DNA from: Acidobacteriota bacterium
GTDB lineage: Bacteria > Acidobacteriota > UBA6911 > RPQK01 > JAJDTT01
Reading direction: 5' to 3'
Assembly (NCBI GenBank): GCA_965263035.1
Contig: OZ253580.1
Coordinates: 2,464,001-2,528,000 of the forward strand
Length of the DNA: 64,000 nt
The notes under the pieces were generated by a model. That model did not search any database. It was not told the origin of the DNA and saw nothing but the letters and a program-made list of their open reading frames with translations. The translations under genes were made by a program, and so were the position numbers. Every line of letters starts with the position of its first letter. Positions within the stretch are counted from its first letter, which is position 1. Shown one piece after another: positions 5,416 to 53,467 of this stretch.

Positions 5416-5436
5416 TTTTTTCTCCTATTTTCTCAG

Positions 5437-5586
5437 GGAGCCCGGCGGTTGGAAACCGCCGCTCCCGGGCGGCGACAAGAAAGCCGCCGCTCCCATTCGG
5501 CGGCAAGAAAGCCGCCGCTCCCATGGAGCCCGGCGGCTGGAAACCGCCGCTCCCGGGGAGTCCGGCGGTTGGAAACCGCCGCTCCT
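5437..5586. repeat. REP cluster (five hairpins) between nusG and rplK
   Basis: GGCGG(T/C)TGGAAACCGCCGCTCC three times and GGCG(A/G)CAAGAAAGCCGCCGCTCCC twice. Confidence 0.9.
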
Positions 5587-9848: not shown

Positions 9849-10292
9849 TCAGACAACCTTGCGTCCTTTTCCCACGAAGTGCTCGCGGAGCACGTCGACG
9901 TTGCCTTCGACCCGAGCGATGCGGTCGCCGAGCGATGCTTCGACCTTGGCGATGCGTTCCGTAAGGGATACTTCGACCTGAGCGATGCGTTCCCTAAGGG
10001 ACACCTCGACCTGAGCGATGCGTTCCGTAAGGGATACCTCGGCCTGAGCGATGCGCTCCCTAAGGGACACCTCGACCTGCCCAATTCGTTCCGTGAGCGA
10101 GACTTCGACCCGGACAATGCGGTCACGGTTTTTGCCGATTTCACGGGTGGCGTCACGCAGGTCCGAGCGAATGCCCGCCAATTGTACGTTGAGATCCCGG
10201 CGGCTGGCCCGGAATTGGGTGAGGATGAGGCCGGTGGCGGTCAGGATGAGGCCACCGAGCGAAACGATGATGATCGTGATTTCGAACGTCAT
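9849..10292 (-). CDS. Small single-TM coiled-coil protein with 11-aa tandem repeats
   Basis: Hydrophobic N-terminus, (VEVSLxERIAQ)n encoded by 33-bp repeats, RVEG C-terminal motif. Confidence 0.8.
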   Translation of the reverse strand: MTFEITIIIVSLGGLILTATGLILTQFRASRRDLNVQLAGIRSDLRDATREIGKNRDRIVRVEVSLTERIGQVEVSLRERIAQAEVSLTERIAQVEVSLRERIAQVEVSLTERIAKVEASLGDRIARVEGNVDVLREHFVGKGRKVV

Positions 10293-18000: not shown

Positions 18001-18158
18001 GAGCGGCGGTTTTCTTGCCGCCGATTGGGGGGGGTAGGGGGGACGATTAGTCCCCCCTCCTCTTCGTCTTCTTCCTTCTCAATCCGGAGTGGGCGACAAG
18101 AAAGTCGCCCCTCCCAGCGGGCGGCAAGAAAGCCGCCCGTCCTAGCGGGCGACAAGAA
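18000..18158. repeat. Composite REP doublet copy 2 plus extra REPs (last one split by the intron)
   Basis: Near-identical to 21057-21175. Confidence 0.85.
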
Positions 18159-18801
18159 GTCGCGGTAGGGACACCGGTTGCCCAGCGCCCCCCGCGCAGA
18201 TCCGTGCGTGCCCGTTAAGGCACACGGCTCCTACCTCAGGTAGTGACGGCAGGTCGCGACGCCCGCCGTATCCGACCCCCGCCTGTGTCACGGTCATCCG
18301 GCTCTGGGTCCGGTCCGTACTTTGGTGAGCCGAATTCCCCTTGGCTCCATCCCTTCGCTCCACGGACTCCGCAGAAAGTTCCCCCTCTTTGTTCGCCCGC
18401 TTCATCACTACTATGGATGTATCCGATTGCTTGCTCTTTCCCCTCATGGGTTACGGCTTTCTCCTTTCCCACGAGGCCCCGGCTCTCGCCGGGGAGAGAC
18501 CAAGCCCTCCCAGGTCCCGACACCAGATGTACGTACGTGCATGGGTTCTTTGACACCGCGGAGCCCGGCCGTCCCTCACCTTGGCGGTCCAGCCGGTGTT
18601 GCCTTCGACCGCGACTACAGCCTCGGCACTTCCGATCAAGGAGCTTTCGATGCTCAATAGCCTGCCCATACGCACCGCTACCGACGCTTCGCCGACGCCC
18701 TCACGGACGCCCACGCACGGCTCGCGGAGAAACGTGGATGGTTAGTCCTTTCGTTTCAGCGGACTTTCACCGCCTATCTTGTGCCAGTTAGCCTGGCGCA
18801 C
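18159..18801 (-). mobile_element. ORF-less group II intron (IIB-like), 643 nt
   Basis: 5' GTGCG at 18801; domain V GAGCCGTGTGCCTTAACGGGCACGCACGGATC; 3' end CCCTACCGCGAC; no RT ORF. Confidence 0.9.
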
Positions 18802-19487: not shown

Positions 19488-19927
19488 TCGACGATAGATT
19501 GGGAGTATCCATGTTGCAAGTGGTGGGTGCTAATCGGTGTTTCCATCCCGTGTCGTTAGTACGTGATCTGTCCGGTCCAAAGGGCACAGGGTTAGGAGGA
19601 GCGTTCTTCCGCCGGAGGTGAGGCGGAGATCGAGCTGGATCCAGCGGGCGCCGTGCAGGGGGCGATGAGTGGACCGATAACTGGATCGAGGGACCTGAGA
19701 TCGTCGACGTCAGTCCTCCGGGAGGTCCGGATACGCCCTGGGGAGCGTCGGGTCAAGCCTCCGGCTCCTCCGCTTCGCTGCGGCCCTTCGGGTGACCCGG
19801 CGCTCCCCAGGGCGTGAAGAGCTTTCATGGCCGTAAGCAAGCTTCCGGCCAGACTTGACCGGAAGTTCGACAGACGGCCATCAGGGGGTCCACACGCTCC
19901 CTTTCCTCACGGGGTCTCTCCGTGGCC

Positions 19928-20875
19928 TCAGAAGGTCGCTCGGGGCGCTACGGGCAACCAGGTGCGGTCCTGCCGGACGAGGGTGTTGGCCAGGACGATA
20001 AGCTTGCGCATGACGGCGACGAGGGCCACCTTGCCGGGCTTGCCGCGCTCGCTCAGCCTCCGGTACACCTCGGCCAAGTCGGGGTTCCAGCGCAGGGCGG
20101 CCACCGCCGGCATGTACAGGAGCCGTCGCGCCCGCGCCCGTCCGCCCCGGATGAAGGCCCGGCCCTGCCAAGCCCCCGACTCGCGCGGAACGGCGGCCAG
20201 CCCGGCCAGACTGGCGGCGGCCTTGCCGCTGAGGGCGCCCAGCTCGGGCATCTCGGCCAGCAGACCGGCGGCGGTGGTGGCCGCGATCCCGGGAATGGAG
20301 GTGAGGATCTCCAACTTGCGGGCCCGCGCCTCGTCGGCCGCAATCAGCGTCTGCAATTTGCGGTCGATGGCGCGCAGGTGGCGCTCGAACATGTTGATCT
20401 GGATCTGGTTCTGCTGTTTGAGCAGGGGTTCGCGGAGCTGTCGGCGGCGGTTGAGCGCGGCCGTGCGCTGGCGCATCAGCGCGTCCCGGGACGTCTGCAG
20501 ATCCTGGAGCCGGCGTTGCGTTTTGGACGGCACCTGGGTCCGGCGCGGCTCCAGCGTGGCGGCCAGCTGGGCCAGTTTCCGAGCGTCTACGGCGTCGGTC
20601 TTGGCGCGGCTCCCGGTCGCCTCGGCGAAGCGCCGCGCCTGCCAGGGGTTCACCTTCGCCAGCGGCAGCTTCGCTTTGGACAGCGCTTCCTCGAGGTCCC
20701 GGTGGTAGGGACCGGTGGCCTCGTACGCGATGCACTCGACCGGAGTTCCGATCCAATCAATCAGCGCCCGGAAGCCGGCCGGGTCATTGTCGAACTGGGC
20801 GGAATGGCCGTCGGCCAGCCGGTGCGCGTCCAGGTGCGCTTTCGAGATGTCGATGCCTACGGTATGCTGTTTCAT
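19928..20875 (-). CDS. IS110 DEDD recombinase/transposase
   Basis: GIDISK, YEATG, AKTDAVDA, SIPGI, RESG, VAVMRKL. Confidence 0.95.
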   Translation of the reverse strand: MKQHTVGIDISKAHLDAHRLADGHSAQFDNDPAGFRALIDWIGTPVECIAYEATGPYHRDLEEALSKAKLPLAKVNPWQARRFAEATGSRAKTDAVDARKLAQLAATLEPRRTQVPSKTQRRLQDLQTSRDALMRQRTAALNRRRQLREPLLKQQNQIQINMFERHLRAIDRKLQTLIAADEARARKLEILTSIPGIAATTAAGLLAEMPELGALSGKAAASLAGLAAVPRESGAWQGRAFIRGGRARARRLLYMPAVAALRWNPDLAEVYRRLSERGKPGKVALVAVMRKLIVLANTLVRQDRTWLPVAPRATF

Positions 20876-21055
20876 CTTTCCTGTCTCCTGTGCTTGTCAT
20901 TCGGGCCTTGATGCCCTCGTATCCATTCAGGACATCGGGAAAGACGGTGGCCGACCTCACTCCCATACGGTTCGTAACAGTCCGCGGCGGTACGGTCCAG
21001 CCACCGCCGTCCGGGTCGCTCATGAGCGACCCGGACGGCCCCATTTAAACAGACA
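20876..21055 (-). ncRNA. Putative IS110 bridge RNA (copy 1)
   Basis: 5' hairpin, then a loop with ACCGCCGC/TGGGAG (matches target flanks) and a loop with ATGGATAC/GACAAG (matches element ends). Confidence 0.75.
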
Positions 21056-21056
21056 A

Positions 21057-21175
21057 GCGGCGGTTTTCTTGCCGCCGATTCGGGGGGTAGGGGGGACGAT
21101 TAGTCCCCCCCTCCTCTTCGTCTTCTTCCTTCTCGATCCGGAGTGGGCGACAAGAAAGTCGCCCCTCCCAGCGGG
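21057..21175. repeat. Composite REP doublet copy 3 (first REP cut by IS110)
   Basis: Matches 18001-18120. Confidence 0.85.
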
Positions 21176-24110: not shown

Positions 24111-24373
24111 CCGCCGGACTCCCCGGAGGGGCGGTTTCCAACCGCCCATTCTTCCGTTCCTCCGGGGAATGGGGGACAAGACTGTCCCCTCCTATGCCCC
24201 TTCCTGTGAAGATTTCCGATGACCGATCGCACTTTTTCCGCAGTCGTCATAGTAGGTAACGAGCGTTGACAATCGATGACGGGCAACGGAAGAATGCTTC
24301 CTATGGCACGAAACCCCTTGATGGCAAGATGTAGGCGAATCCCGTCTCTCGCCATTAGGTGGAGACCAAGACC

Positions 24374-24703
24374 GTGAATGTTGATCTGATCAGGGTCTTG
24401 GTGGCAGTGGCGGCAGTGGGCGTCGGTCTTGGCGGACTGACGTTGGCCGGCGTGCGAGGGCTGGGTCGCGAAATGCGGGGCCTGCGGCAGGAGACGCGGG
24501 ACGAAATCCAAGGCTTGCGGCAGGAGATGCGGAAGGAAATCCAAGGCCTGCGGCGGGAGACGCGGCACGATATACGGGACATGCGCGGCCACATGGGACG
24601 AATCGATTCCCATATCGGCGAACTCCGGGAACGCATGGGGCACGTGGAAGGACTGTTGAAGGGGTTGCGCGACGCTTTCGTCCAGGGGATCACCCCCAGC
24701 TAG
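24374..24703 (+). CDS. Small single-TM coiled-coil protein (33-bp repeats)
   Basis: MNVDLIRVLVAVAAVGVGLGGL, repeated IQGLRQE, HMGRIDSHIGELRERMGHVEGLLKGLR; paralog of 30323-30577. Confidence 0.8.
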   Translation: MNVDLIRVLVAVAAVGVGLGGLTLAGVRGLGREMRGLRQETRDEIQGLRQEMRKEIQGLRRETRHDIRDMRGHMGRIDSHIGELRERMGHVEGLLKGLRDAFVQGITPS

Positions 24704-24807
24704 GAGCCTGCGCCGCAGAAATTGATCTACTGCGAAAGCGGTAGAATCGGTCCATATTTCCTCGATTCCCCACTTTCTCGCTACGATCATTTCTACCGCG
24801 CAGACTC
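24704..24807. mobile_element. MITE copy 1 (55-bp internal deletion)
   Basis: Imperfect TIRs GAGCCTGCGCCGCAGAAATTGATC / GATCATTTCTACCGCGCAGACTC. Confidence 0.8.
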
Positions 24808-24949: not shown

Positions 24950-25581
24950 ATCGGGTCGAGTACAGGGGATTGCGCCCCCGCACCCTCCCACACCACCGGA
25001 CGTACCGTTTTCAGTATCCGGCGGTTGGAGTCACCCGAGGCTCTTTCGAGCCTCGTACAGGGCCTTTCTTTCCGGTTTCCGCCGCCGCTGAGACTTGATC
25101 TCCGCCCTTCCGGCTTGCCGGCCTCCACCCGTGGGCCTTCCATGCCGGGTCCGAGGAGGGTTCCCCTCGCCCCGCTGTCGGAGGTGGTTGCGATCCCGCT
25201 GACGAGTCCACCATAGGGCCAGTCCGACTCCTTCGGTCCTTCGCTCCACCGGCATTACCCGGCTTCTTCGCTACTACGACCTCTGCTGACTTCTCAAGGG
25301 CTCTCACCCTTGAGATCTCCCCGAGTAAGGTGCTGCATCTTTCCCCCCGGGCCGCCCGGCTCTACCTGATGCGTCTGGATGGGGTTCGGGTTTCGCTGTT
25401 GCTCGCCAGCTCACCGCCCGCACCCGGCCTCACTGCCGGTTCGTGTTCCTGCGATCGTGGGTTTGCCTTCCGCTTCCTTCAGCTTCGCCTCGCGGCTTCG
25501 CCTTGCGGTTCGGCTAGGGTTGATCCCATCACCTCCCTTGGGATCTTTCATCCCTTAGATACAGCCCATGTCCGGGCGTAC
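24950..25581 (-). mobile_element. ORF-less group IIC intron, 632 nt
   Basis: 5' GTACGCCCGGACATGGG; short domain V AACCGCCGGATACTGAAAACGGTACGTCCGGTGGT; 3' end CTCGACCCGAT; no RT ORF. Confidence 0.88.
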
Positions 25582-25783
25582 GAGCGGCGACTTTCTTATC
25601 GTCGATTAGGTGGAGGTGGAGGTGGAGTCCCACCTCTACACTTTCCGGCTAGAAGAGGAGGCGGCAAGAAAACCGCCTCTCCCAGCCGGCGACAAGAAAG
25701 TCGCCGCTCCCAGCCGGCGGCAAGAAAGCGGCTGCTCCTGTCGTGGAATCGGTCTTGGGGCCGTGATATCGTGCTGGCCAGTC

Positions 25784-30190: not shown

Positions 30191-30324
30191 AGGAGCGGCG
30201 GCTTTCTTGCCGCCGATTAGGGGGGGTTAGGGGGGACGGTTAGTCCCCCCTCCTCTTCGTCTGTCCGGAGCAGGCGACAAGAAAGTCGCCTGTCCCAGTG
30301 GGCGACAAGAAAGTCGCCCCTCCT
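30191..30324. repeat. Composite REP doublet copy 4
   Basis: Same layout as 16409-16519. Confidence 0.8.
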
Positions 30325-30577
30325 AGTCGGACACGGTCGGCCGGACGAAGACTTCTCGCAATCCCTTCAGCAATCCTTCGACGTGCCCCATGCGTTCCCG
30401 GAGTTCGCCGATATGGGAGTCGATCCGCCCCATGTGGTTGCGCATGTCCCGTATTTCCTGGCGCATGTCCCGCATTTCGTGCCGAACCCCTCGCCAACTG
30501 GCTAACATCAGACCGGCCAAGCCGACTCCCACCGCCACCACGGCTATCAAGACGCTGATCAGGTCAACATTCATCAT
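30323..30577 (-). CDS. Small single-TM coiled-coil protein
   Basis: MMNVDLISVLIAVVAVGVGLAGL, HMGRIDSHIGELRERMGHVEGLLKGLR. Confidence 0.8.
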   Translation of the reverse strand: MMNVDLISVLIAVVAVGVGLAGLMLASWRGVRHEMRDMRQEIRDMRNHMGRIDSHIGELRERMGHVEGLLKGLREVFVRPTVSD

Positions 30578-31121
30578 CTGATCTCCGTTGAAGTCCCGAA
30601 TGGGGCGCCTCCGGATCCCGGCGAACAGGAACAGCCTACGTTTTGCGATGAATCCGGTCTATACGAAGCATTCTTCCGTTGGCCGGCGGCGATTGTCAAC
30701 GTTCAATACATATAACGACGGCCGCGAAGAATAGATGATCGATCCTTGAAAAACGTGTCCATCAAACTCGAGAGTATCCATGTTGCAAGTGGTGGGTGCT
30801 AATCGGTGTTTCCATCCCGTGTCGTTAGTACGTGATCTGGCCGGTCCAAAGGGCACAGGGTTAGGAGGAGCGTTCTTCCGCCGGAGGTGAGGCGGAGATC
30901 GAGCTGGATCCAGCGGGCGCCGTGCAGGGGGCGATGAGTGGACGGATCAACTGGATCGAGGGACCTGAGATCGTCGACGTCAGTCCTCCGGGAGGTCCGG
31001 ATACGCCCTGAAGAGCTTTCATGGCCGTAAGCAAGCTTCCGGCCAGACCTGACCGGAAGTTCGACAGACGGCCATCAGGGGGTCCACACGCTCCCTTTCC
31101 TCACGGGGTCTCTCCGTGGCC

Positions 31122-32069
31122 TCAGAAGGTCGCTCGGGGCGCTACGGGCAACCAGGTGCGGTCCTGCCGGACGAGGGTGTTGGCCAGGACGATGAGCTTG
31201 CGCATGACGGCGACGAGGGCCACCTTGCCGGGCTTGCCGCGCTCGCTCAGCCTCCGGTACACCTCGGCCAAGTCGGGGTTCCAGCGCAGGGCGGCCACCG
31301 CCGGCATGTACAGGAGCCGTCGCCCCCGCGCCCGTCCGCTCCGGATGAAGGCCCGGCCCTGCCAAGCCCCCGACTCGCGCGGAACGGCCGCCAGCCCGGC
31401 CAGACTGGCGGCGGCCTTGCCGCTGAGGGCGCCCAGCTCGGGCATCTCGGCCAGCAGACCGGCGGCGGTGGTGGCCGCGATCCCGGGAATGGAGGTGAGG
31501 ATCTCCAGCTTGCGGGCCCGCGCCTCGTCGGCCGCAATCAGCTGCTGCATTTTGCGGTCGATGGCGCGCAGGTGGCGCTCGAACACGTTGATCTGGGTCT
31601 GGTTCTGCTGTTTGAGCAAGGGTTCGCGGAGCTGTTGGCGGCGGTTGAGCAGGGCCGTGCGCTGGCGGATCAGCGCGTCCCGGGCCGTCTGCAGTTCCTG
31701 GAGCCGGCGTTGCGTTTTGGACGGGGCCGGGGTCCGGCGCGGATCCAGGCTGGCGGCCATCTGGGCCAGTTTCCGAGCGTCTACGGCGTCGATCTTGGCA
31801 CGGCTCCCGGTCGCCCGGGCGAAACACCGGGCCTGCCAGGGGTTCACCTTGGCCAACGGCAGCTTCGCTTTGGACAGCGCTTCCTCGAGGTCCCGGTGGT
31901 AGGGGCCGGTGGCCTCGTACGCGACGCACTCGTCCGGAGTTCCGATCCAATCGATCAGCGCCCGGAAGCCGGCCGGGTCATTGTCGAACTGGGCGGAATG
32001 GCCGTCGGCCAGCCGGTGCGCGTCCAGGTGCGCTTTCGAGATGTCGATGCCTACGGTATGCTGTTTCAT
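31122..32069 (-). CDS. IS110 DEDD recombinase/transposase
   Basis: 315-aa paralog of 19928-20875. Confidence 0.95.
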   Translation of the reverse strand: MKQHTVGIDISKAHLDAHRLADGHSAQFDNDPAGFRALIDWIGTPDECVAYEATGPYHRDLEEALSKAKLPLAKVNPWQARCFARATGSRAKIDAVDARKLAQMAASLDPRRTPAPSKTQRRLQELQTARDALIRQRTALLNRRQQLREPLLKQQNQTQINVFERHLRAIDRKMQQLIAADEARARKLEILTSIPGIAATTAAGLLAEMPELGALSGKAAASLAGLAAVPRESGAWQGRAFIRSGRARGRRLLYMPAVAALRWNPDLAEVYRRLSERGKPGKVALVAVMRKLIVLANTLVRQDRTWLPVAPRATF

Positions 32070-32249
32070 CTTTCCGGTCTCCTGTGCTTGTCATTCGGGC
32101 CTTGATGCCCTTGTATCCATTCAGGACATCGGGAAAGACGGTGGCCGACCTGACTGCTTTTCGGTTCGCAAAAGTCCGCGGCGGTACGGTCCAGCCACCG
32201 CCGTCCGGGTCGCTCATGAGCGACCCGGACGGGCCTATTTAAACAGACA
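32070..32249 (-). ncRNA. Putative IS110 bridge RNA (copy 2, altered right target guide)
   Basis: Same scaffold as copy 1; plus-strand CTGCTT replaces CTCCCA. Confidence 0.7.
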
Positions 32250-32469
32250 AGCGGCGGTTTTCTTGCCGCCGATCAGGGGGGAACGGCGGTTTCCAACCGC
32301 CGAACTCCTGAGTGACAGTTTGGCGTCTAAGAATGAGCGATTGGAAATCGCCTCTCCGTTCGTCTAAGAATGGGCGATTGGAAATCGCCCCTCCGTTCGT
32401 CTTTTTGCAGCCTCTGTTCATGGCTTGCGGAGCAGGTCCCGGCGCCATATGCCACAAGGAGAACCCGAA

Positions 32470-52732: not shown

Positions 52733-53056
52733 GGGAGGGGCGATTTTCTTGTCGCCCATTCCTGACTGGCGATTTGTGTATCCCGGAGGTCGGAGCTCGG
52801 AGGTCGGCGGCACGAAAGCTGCGGCTCCCGCTCGGGCGGCAAGAAAACCGCCCGTCCCATTCGGCGACAAGAAAGTCGCCGCTCCCAATCGGCGGCAAGG
52901 AAGACGTTGCTCCCATCCGGCGATAAGAAAGTCGTTGCTCCCATTCGGCGGCACGAAAGCTGCGGCTCCTGCTCGGGCGGCAAGAAAGCCGCCGCTCCCA
53001 TTCGACGATAAGGAAGTCGTCGCTCCCATTCGGCGGCAGGAAAGTCGCCGCTCCCG
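52733..53056. repeat. Large REP mosaic (about 10 hairpin units)
   Basis: Tandem CGGCGRCAAGAAAGYCGCCGCTCCCA and CGGCACGAAAGCTGCGGCTCC units. Confidence 0.9.
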
Positions 53057-53080: not shown

Positions 53081-53467
53081 TCAGGCGGCGGTGCCGCGTC
53101 CGTTGCGGACGAAGAATTCCCGGAGCACGTCGAGCGTACCCTCGAGGCGAGCCATGCGTTCTTCGAGCCGGCCCATGCGGTTGCGGAGATCCCCGAGCCC
53201 GGTATCCATGTGGTTGCGGAGATCCCCGAGCCCGGTATCCATGTGGCTGCGGAGATTCCCGAACCCGGTATCCATGCGGTCGCGCAGATTCCCGTTCTCG
53301 GTATCCATGTGGGCGCGCAAATTCCCGTTCTCGGTATCCACGTGGACTCGGAGATCCGAGATGTCGCCGCGCAGCTCCTTGATGTCCTGGCGCGTGACGC
53401 GGTGCAGGTAGAGCATGAGGCCAACGATGACGGCAGGGGAAATCCACTGGAAGAGTTCAGGTGACAT
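53081..53467 (-). CDS. Small single-TM coiled-coil protein with 11-aa tandem repeats
   Basis: MSPELFQWISPAVIVGLML, (HMDTGxGxLRx)n from 33-bp repeats, MARLEGTLDVLREFFV. Confidence 0.82.
   Translation of the reverse strand: MSPELFQWISPAVIVGLMLYLHRVTRQDIKELRGDISDLRVHVDTENGNLRAHMDTENGNLRDRMDTGFGNLRSHMDTGLGDLRNHMDTGLGDLRNRMGRLEERMARLEGTLDVLREFFVRNGRGTAA

Follow-up and report, generated by a model that had tools for sequence, protein, structure and literature searches.

Target-loop alleles among coexisting IS110-family copies in an Acidobacteriota chromosome, and a copy whose own guide misfits its site

The element and its bridge RNA region

The window, by which we mean the whole 64,000-nt stretch of Acidobacteriota DNA that was analysed, contains two copies of an IS110-family element on its minus strand. 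Copy 2 occupies 30773..32251 and, as delimited by alignment of 13 genomic copies with their flanks, is 1479 nt long including the CT core at both ends; copy 1 lies at 19504..21057. The recombinase gene of copy 2 (31122..32069, minus strand) is an intact ORF of 315 amino acids, in which Pfam detected DEDD_Tnp_IS110 (PF01548, E 1.4e-21) and Transposase_20 (PF02371, E 1.8e-18). Comparison with PDB chains matched the protein to the IS621 transposase (8wt6, E 3.6e-31) and to ISCro4 (9t56, E 2.3e-34), with residues 3-299 aligned. The genome, a metagenome-derived single contig of 6.2 Mb, holds 12 full-length copies of the element and one shortened copy (K). The CT core was present at both junctions of all 12 full-length copies, and at the left end only of K, owing to its truncation.

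The right end of copy 2 (30773..31121, minus strand) contains a -35-like TTGCAA at 30783-30788 which, from coordinates alone, would lie 17 nt from TTAAAT (32237-32242, in the left end) on a hypothetical circle junction. Right ends of the family elements measured 349-425 nt. That of copy 1 carries a 76-nt palindromic insert (window 19747-19822), found in 9 of the 12 full-length copies; copy 2, C and H lack it. An Rfam match of this insert to mir-939 was weak and below threshold.

On its left, copy 2 abuts a terminal repeat hairpin, CGGCGGCAAGAAAACCGCCG (32252..32275, minus strand), the 3' arm of which is the left target. The right flank (30700..30772, minus strand) reads CTCGAGTTTGATGG... and is the native upstream region of a small gene, collinear with locus L057 of a genome of the same genus (G007). 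The target is a GC-rich hairpin repeat (family D1) that is abundant in the window, and the element is an IS621-like member of the IS110 family whose target lies beside the 3' arm of this hairpin (...CCGCCG-CT-CC...). Arrays of the 28-nt repeat (GGCGGCAAGAAAGCCGCCGCTCCC-type) were located at 5425-5549, 18074-18170, 25642-25738, 30255-30351 and 52817-53054. The segment 30320-30752 forms an inverted paralogous pair with 24213-24706 (73-82% complementary), comprising a small gene and its upstream region followed by repeat units. Elsewhere in the window, domains of a group II intron RNA were recognised at 24950-25499 on the minus strand (RF02001, 80.6 bits; RF01998, 45.3 bits; and RF00029 at 38.9 bits, just below its gathering score), and 33-nt tandem repeats at 9905-10102 and 53140-53388 likely encode in-frame 11-residue protein repeats.

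The left end of copy 2 (32070..32251, minus strand, 182 nt) carries the predicted bridge-RNA gene, a 5' stem-loop followed by two stem-closed loops whose guides correspond to flanking sequence and to the termini of the element. All of its parts are given here on the minus strand. The 5' stem-loop (32203..32230) is a perfect hairpin. The 66-nt target-binding loop (32137..32202) is closed by a 9-bp stem, GGCGGUGGC/GCCACCGUC. Folding predicted both the hairpin and this outer stem in all four of the alleles described below, and the target-loop stem with a variable interior was present in 19 copies from 3 genomes. Within the loop, the left target guide ACCGCCGCG (32177..32185) has the same sense as the left flank ACCGCCG-CT, and the right target guide of copy 2, AAAAGCAG (32154..32161), is of complementary sense to CT plus the right flank, for which it expects CT-GCTTTT. 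The dinucleotide UC beside the right guide (32152..32153; UG in copy 1) is a putative handshake dinucleotide, assigned from its position by analogy with IS621 (PMC11208158). In the donor-binding loop (32077..32127), the left donor guide ATGGATAC (32113-32120) equals the element's own right end, ...ATGGATA-CT, and the right donor guide GACAAG (32087-32092) is complementary to the left end, CT-TGTC; each is identical in 13/13 copies. The donor-loop stem was predicted in V2 and V4 only, and loop interiors varied between minimum-free-energy folds. A conserved inner hairpin in the target loop (loop pairs 4-16 and 6-14), sought by eye over seven alleles, is not claimed, as position 6 varies without compensation. 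An Rfam scan of the left end matched no family, and its weak miRNA-type hits were below threshold.

This guide arrangement is that of the IS621 scheme as described in PMC11208158 and PMC11208160. As in IS621 of E. coli, a DEDD/Tnp recombinase is combined with an RNA, predicted in the present element, that is specified by the left end ahead of the gene and in which a 5' stem-loop precedes the target and donor loops (PMC11208158, PMC11208160). The published IS621 descriptions also agree with the present element in that the left guides have the sense of the left flank and left end, the right guides have the complementary sense with respect to the right flank and right end, the core is CT, and insertion occurs into repeat palindromes. 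In addition, each right guide has on its 3' side a putative dinucleotide able to pair with the non-cognate DNA, the U that follows the right target guide pairing with donor A7 and the C that follows the right donor guide pairing with target G7. Unlike IS621, the present element resides in a host of the phylum Acidobacteriota, its bridge RNA is without an Rfam match, its right end is longer (349-425 nt across the family), the inner hairpin of its target loop is poorly defined, and several loop alleles coexist in one genome. Placement in the IS1111 group, which has a seekRNA downstream of the transposase gene and subterminal inverted repeats, was considered and is not supported by the left end, as all four guides sit in its 182 nt upstream of the gene.

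Target-loop alleles within one genome

The alignment of copies 1 and 2 covers 1478 positions and shows 51 differences, 11 of which lie in the 182-nt left end. Seven of the differences fall within 21 nt of the target loop, at 32152, 32156, 32158, 32159, 32161, 32169 and 32172. When the 51 differences were placed at random, 7 differences in any 21-nt window were obtained in 26 of 20000 permutations, in agreement with the clustering that had been noticed in an earlier, sequence-only reading of this DNA. The plus-strand strings and coordinates given there, including CTGCTT at 32154-32159, were correct, as was its statement that the left target guide and both the left and right donor guides are the same in the two copies. 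Set against the IS621 scheme, four of the changes would lie in the right guide or its extension, opposite arm positions 1, 3, 4 and 6; one would alter the putative handshake dinucleotide at its second base, from UG to UC; and two would fall between the two target guides. We also considered the changes at 32169 and 32172 as additional bottom-strand guide bases; this was unsupported, the IS621 text numbering the bottom strand in reverse. Copies 1 and 2 differ, that is to say, in carrying separate alleles of the target-binding loop.

Four loop alleles were found in the genome. V1, carried by copies D, E, F (copy 1), I, L and M, combines the left guide ACCGCCG with an expected right arm of CCCAT. 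V2 (copies B, C and H) has the left guide ACCGACG and expects CCCAA. V3 (copy A) and V4 (copies G, which is copy 2, J and K) have the ACCGCCG left guide and expect CCTTT and GCTTT, respectively. A single base of the guide core separates V4 (GCAG) from V3 (GGAG). Two genomes of the same genus contributed three further alleles, including one with the left guide GTCGCCG, giving seven alleles over three genomes; the right-guide core was GGAG in six of the seven, and GCAG in V4. The proposal that the right guide diversifies within the family was thus borne out by four alleles in this genome and seven across the three. The change is not peculiar to copy 2, a point that the earlier reading had missed, V4 being present also in J and K on a different backbone. 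Sequencing error had been named in the sequence-only reading as a possible refutation. The loop differences are not random sequencing error, since three assembled copies have the same allele and a fourth has one that departs from it by one base.

J (G000:C1 4765112-4766667) and K (5835261-5836385), both outside the window, have a common 1-nt insertion which shifts the recombinase reading frame to a stop at residue 30; the gene of copy 2 is intact. K also has a 42-nt deletion and is without a right end, and it has diverged much less in its 5' part than in its 3' part. An order-wide pattern search for the loop found it in 3 of 76 genomes (G000, G004 and G007), so the sample of homologs is small. 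Two metagenome scans, one with the V3/V4 loop and the other allowing any interior within the conserved stems, each returned 0 stretches. In the relatives, about 1.2 kb of foreign DNA interrupts one left end (L007 of G004, 126-208 and 1402-2650) within its target loop, and two elements of G007 (L003 and L004, from about 2838 onward) have a common right end that diverges from the family some 36 nt short of the usual terminus. As a comparator we used an alphaproteobacterial IS110 element (32 aligned copies from two genomes), in which no within-genome variation of the loop was seen. Loop polymorphism is therefore not universal, as judged from this single comparator.

Guides and flanking sequences

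The left guide followed its flank closely. Among the 19 assessable copies of this genome and its relatives, 17 matched their own left flank at 7/7 positions and the other two at 6/7. Three left-guide alleles (ACCGCCG, ACCGACG and GTCGCCG) were present, and the left guide covaried with the left flank: the V2 guide ACCGACG matched the flanks in 3/3 copies, and the GTCGCCG alleles of the relatives matched perfectly in 3 of 4. This variation of the left guide, seen in copies B, C and H of the genome, had been left unmentioned by the earlier reading. The V2 copies (G000:C1 653129-654685, 1125870-1127345 and 3695500-3696978, outside the window) sit in a separate motif of ~60 nt, ~40 nt upstream of genes for IS5/IS1182-like DDE transposases (Pfam). 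Since they occupy this different motif, the one-base change in their left guide tracks a new target. On the right, the flank of B agrees with those of C and H at only 88%. The ~60-nt motif also occurs once without an element, at G000 4173831 (minus strand), ahead of an IS1595-type transposase.

The right guide was scored as the number of own-guide matches over five right-arm bases in the 12 full-length copies of G000. Copies D (site CCCAT) and E scored 5; F (copy 1), L (site CCCGT), A, B, C and H scored 4; and I, M (site CCTCT) and J scored 3. The right guide of copy 1, UAUGGGAG at 20960-20967, faces a right flank of CT-CCCAAT. Copy 2, with the arm CTCGA, scored 0, the lowest of the 12. Its right flank had been read earlier as CT-CTCG, and in the orientation of the element it is indeed CT-CTCGAG. 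The own-guide total of 43/60 positions was reached in 1990 of 100000 shuffles of the allele labels over all 12 copies. When the non-independent V2 trio was left out, leaving the nine repeat-targeting copies, 18973 of 100000 shuffles reached the observed total. Tabulation of right guide against right flank, which had been proposed as a check, thus gave no significant covariation among the repeat-targeting copies.

The right flank starts with CC in 16 of 17 assessable copies, and with CT in copy 2. These core-proximal bases fit a GGAG guide core in 15 of the 17; in J, it is the GCAG core of V4 that faces CC. Copies D, L and M have 0 substitutions between them, yet show 0, 1 and 2 right-arm mismatches, respectively. 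The occurrence of these identical copies at CCCAT, CCCGT and CCTCT indicates natural tolerance of mismatch at arm positions 3-4, so that right-side mismatch, which had been offered as one explanation for copy 2, is tolerated at the distal arm positions. CC-type guides match the arm of copy 2 at 2-3 of 5 positions. The genome has three CCGCCGCTGCTT sites, all unoccupied and all lacking the repeat hairpin, and the sites within one arm mismatch number 9 for V4 versus 59 for V1. No V4 copy in the genome sits at a V4-type site, copy 2 matching at 0/5 and J at 3/5 positions, and K being truncated. We considered as well a right guide lengthened to 11 nt, which would run on into the following repeat stem; its 8-10/13 matches were confounded by the repeat consensus.

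Origin of the copy 2 loop and its insertion site

The loop of copy 2 and the remainder of the element have different closest relatives. Over alignment columns 71-140, which contain the loop segment, copy 2 differs from J at 0 of 70 positions, and is identical to K as well, while it differs from B, C and H at 10-11 of 70. Over columns 391-670 the relation is reversed, with 25 of 280 differences from J and 4-8 of 280 from B, C and H. Copy 2 also agrees with B, C and H at left-end columns 16 and 19 and over most of the gene. Among 60 informative sites in copy 2, a run of 11 was J-like, and a run of this length was reached in 20 of 100000 shuffles. Copies I and K look mosaic too. The identity of the loop with J and K, combined with the B/C/H lineage of the remaining sequence, argues that the loop segment was exchanged between copies. 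Exchange is the simplest reading of the mosaic, and the alignment suggests that the V4 loop probably reached copy 2 via homologous recombination or gene conversion between copies. Copy 2 is separated from its nearest copies by 34-36 substitutions, which indicates a long history, and it shows further exchanges.

The insertion site itself could be compared with an orthologous locus. L057 of G007 has no element and reads ...CATCGAACTCG|GGAGCGGCGATTTCC... / ...GTGTCCATCGAACTCG|GGAGCGGCGATTTCCAATCGCCG..., with both sides collinear. In the orientation of the element, TCGCCG-CT-CCCGAG in L057 corresponds to ACCGCCG-CT-[element]-CT-CTCGAG in G000, such that one arm base differs (CCCGAG/CTCGAG). The suggestion that the right flank of copy 2 was later rearranged can be set aside on this evidence, as the empty orthologue has the same flank abutting the repeat hairpin. 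Reads spanning 30773 had been proposed as a further check, and over 30560-30801 the contigs from two public runs (X15 and X16) showed 0 differences. Contigs from these runs also connect 32305 and 30772 through two intervening letters, which suggests a co-occurring haplotype without the element and without the two repeat units that likewise reads CT-CTCGAG. Since this repeat-less haplotype has the same arm, the T at arm position 2 would appear to predate the insertion.

We somewhat favour the reading that V4 neither arose in copy 2 nor chose its site, the loop having been exchanged in, and that a CC-type right guide together with the left guide selected the site. The site would have been a native terminal repeat unit, ACCGCCG-CT-CTCGA, chosen by a perfect left-guide match beside the repeat hairpin. 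On the right side a CC-type guide would have acted, supplied either by an earlier loop of copy 2 or, in trans, by the RNA of another, presumably active copy. An earlier loop might have resembled the ACCGCCG/CCCAA loop that similar elements carry in the relative G007, where L003 and L004 have this CC-type loop on a left end like that of B, C and H. From either source, the CC-type guide would have paired imperfectly with the right arm. The V4 loop would have entered copy 2 by recombination, before or after insertion. Bridge RNA supplied in trans works for IS621 (PMC11208160), trans activity has been described for ISPpu10 in a preprint (10.64898/2026.03.19.712850), and integrated IS621 copies show weak bridge-RNA expression (PMC13626964).

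Against the favoured reading, copy 2 may have held V4 already at insertion. Its own RNA would then have used the left guide, the CT core and the hairpin, leaving the right arm unpaired. The left flank of copy 2 does match the left guide at 7/7, repeat hairpin included, and J, also V4, sits at a 3/5 right-arm match. A single half-site, including the left-target one, was reported to be enough for IS621 recombination in a cell-free setting (10.64898/2026.08.31.748434), and a 5' target stem-loop enhances ISPpu10 recombination (10.64898/2026.03.19.712850). However, copy 2 has no right-arm match even at the two core-proximal positions, the poorest fit of the 12 copies, and CC adjoins the core in 16 of 17 right flanks. 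The right guide is also stringent in ISPpu10 (10.64898/2026.03.19.712850), and the mosaic gives loop and backbone separate histories. We consider insertion under V4, the main rival, unlikely, though by no means negligible. Stringency of the ISPpu10 right guide at 4/5 positions, as described in the same preprint, makes any insertion at the copy 2 site unusual. Further points against the favoured reading are the long history of copy 2 with its other exchanges, the fit of CC-type guides at only 2-3 of 5 arm positions, the T in the arm that would predate insertion, and the lack of significant right-guide covariation among the nine repeat-targeting copies.

The mosaic could instead have been produced by assembly or polishing, with reads of J or K misplaced and V4 not truly at this locus. 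The element is a 1.5-kb repeat of 96-100% identity in a metagenome-derived single-contig genome, and the contigs of four public runs gave only V1 letters at 32152-32172, with no V4 letters in X15, X16 or X1 and zero depth in X2. The junction contigs of X15 and X16 extend 29 nt into the element, under the 31-nt threshold for bridging, and contigs lose minor variants. Their stated loss of rare variants means that the absence of V4 letters at copy 2 says little. The patch is short, moreover, and has letters specific to copy 2 or of B/C/H type on both sides (32233 and 32236; 32076), while other copies (K and I) are likewise mosaic. We regard such an artefact as quite improbable, and the V4 allele would in any case still exist in J and K. 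Hardly credible to us is replacement of the right flank after insertion, by deletion, inversion or recombination between copies, so that guide and flank once matched. In its favour, the right flank does not resemble a repeat spacer beyond its first base; but the G007 orthologue without the element has the same flank beside the same repeat array, the X15 and X16 contigs over 30560-30801 show 0 differences, and neither version of the arm (CCCGAG or CTCGAG) fits the GCTTT expected by V4.

Parts of this picture have precedents. Covariation of guide and target across orthologues has already been published (Durrant et al., PMC11208160), and for the related elements ISEc11 and ISXne4 a natural redirection has been described (Siddiquee et al., PMC11187229). 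As in ISEc11 and ISXne4, the target-detecting part of the guide RNA (seekRNA) is replaced and the stems are conserved. Those are two elements in different hosts with transposases 72% identical, in contrast to the 96-100% identical copies on one chromosome described here; also unlike that pair, one allele occurs here on two backbones. ISPpu10 and ISPpu9 of Pseudomonas putida resemble the present element in targeting a repeat palindrome, where a GC-rich stem-loop lies 5' of the core and shares sequence with the left target (10.64898/2026.03.19.712850), and in having multiple genomic copies. ISPpu10 is reported to insert at target sites that all have one identical sequence, under a stringent right guide, whereas right arms vary here and one copy matches its own guide at 0/5. 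A literature search turned up no account of gene conversion exchanging the loops of IS110 bridge RNAs; the supplementary guide and target tables of Durrant et al. could hold within-genome cases. What is added here is the presence of four loop alleles on 96-100% identical copies in one chromosome, together with evidence of movement of the loop between backbones and a copy whose own guide misfits its site.

The known mechanism is not overturned by these observations. Bridge RNAs are being engineered as programmable recombinases, and natural guide change and right-arm tolerance bear on their off-target behaviour. The genome is a compact natural experiment that is useful for designing mismatch and trans-guidance assays. 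A broader proposal, which we put forward tentatively and hold to be doubtful rather than probable, is that the co-resident copies constitute one pool, with identical donor ends and donor loops, in which target-loop cassettes would be shuffled by gene conversion and used in trans. If so, a copy's own guide need not explain its location, and transposase-dead copies, such as J and K with one frameshift at two loci, would still be propagated. Loop exchange would then be a natural route to new targets, for example variants of the repeat spacer, and a one-base change in the left guide would open the end region of another insertion sequence to the element.
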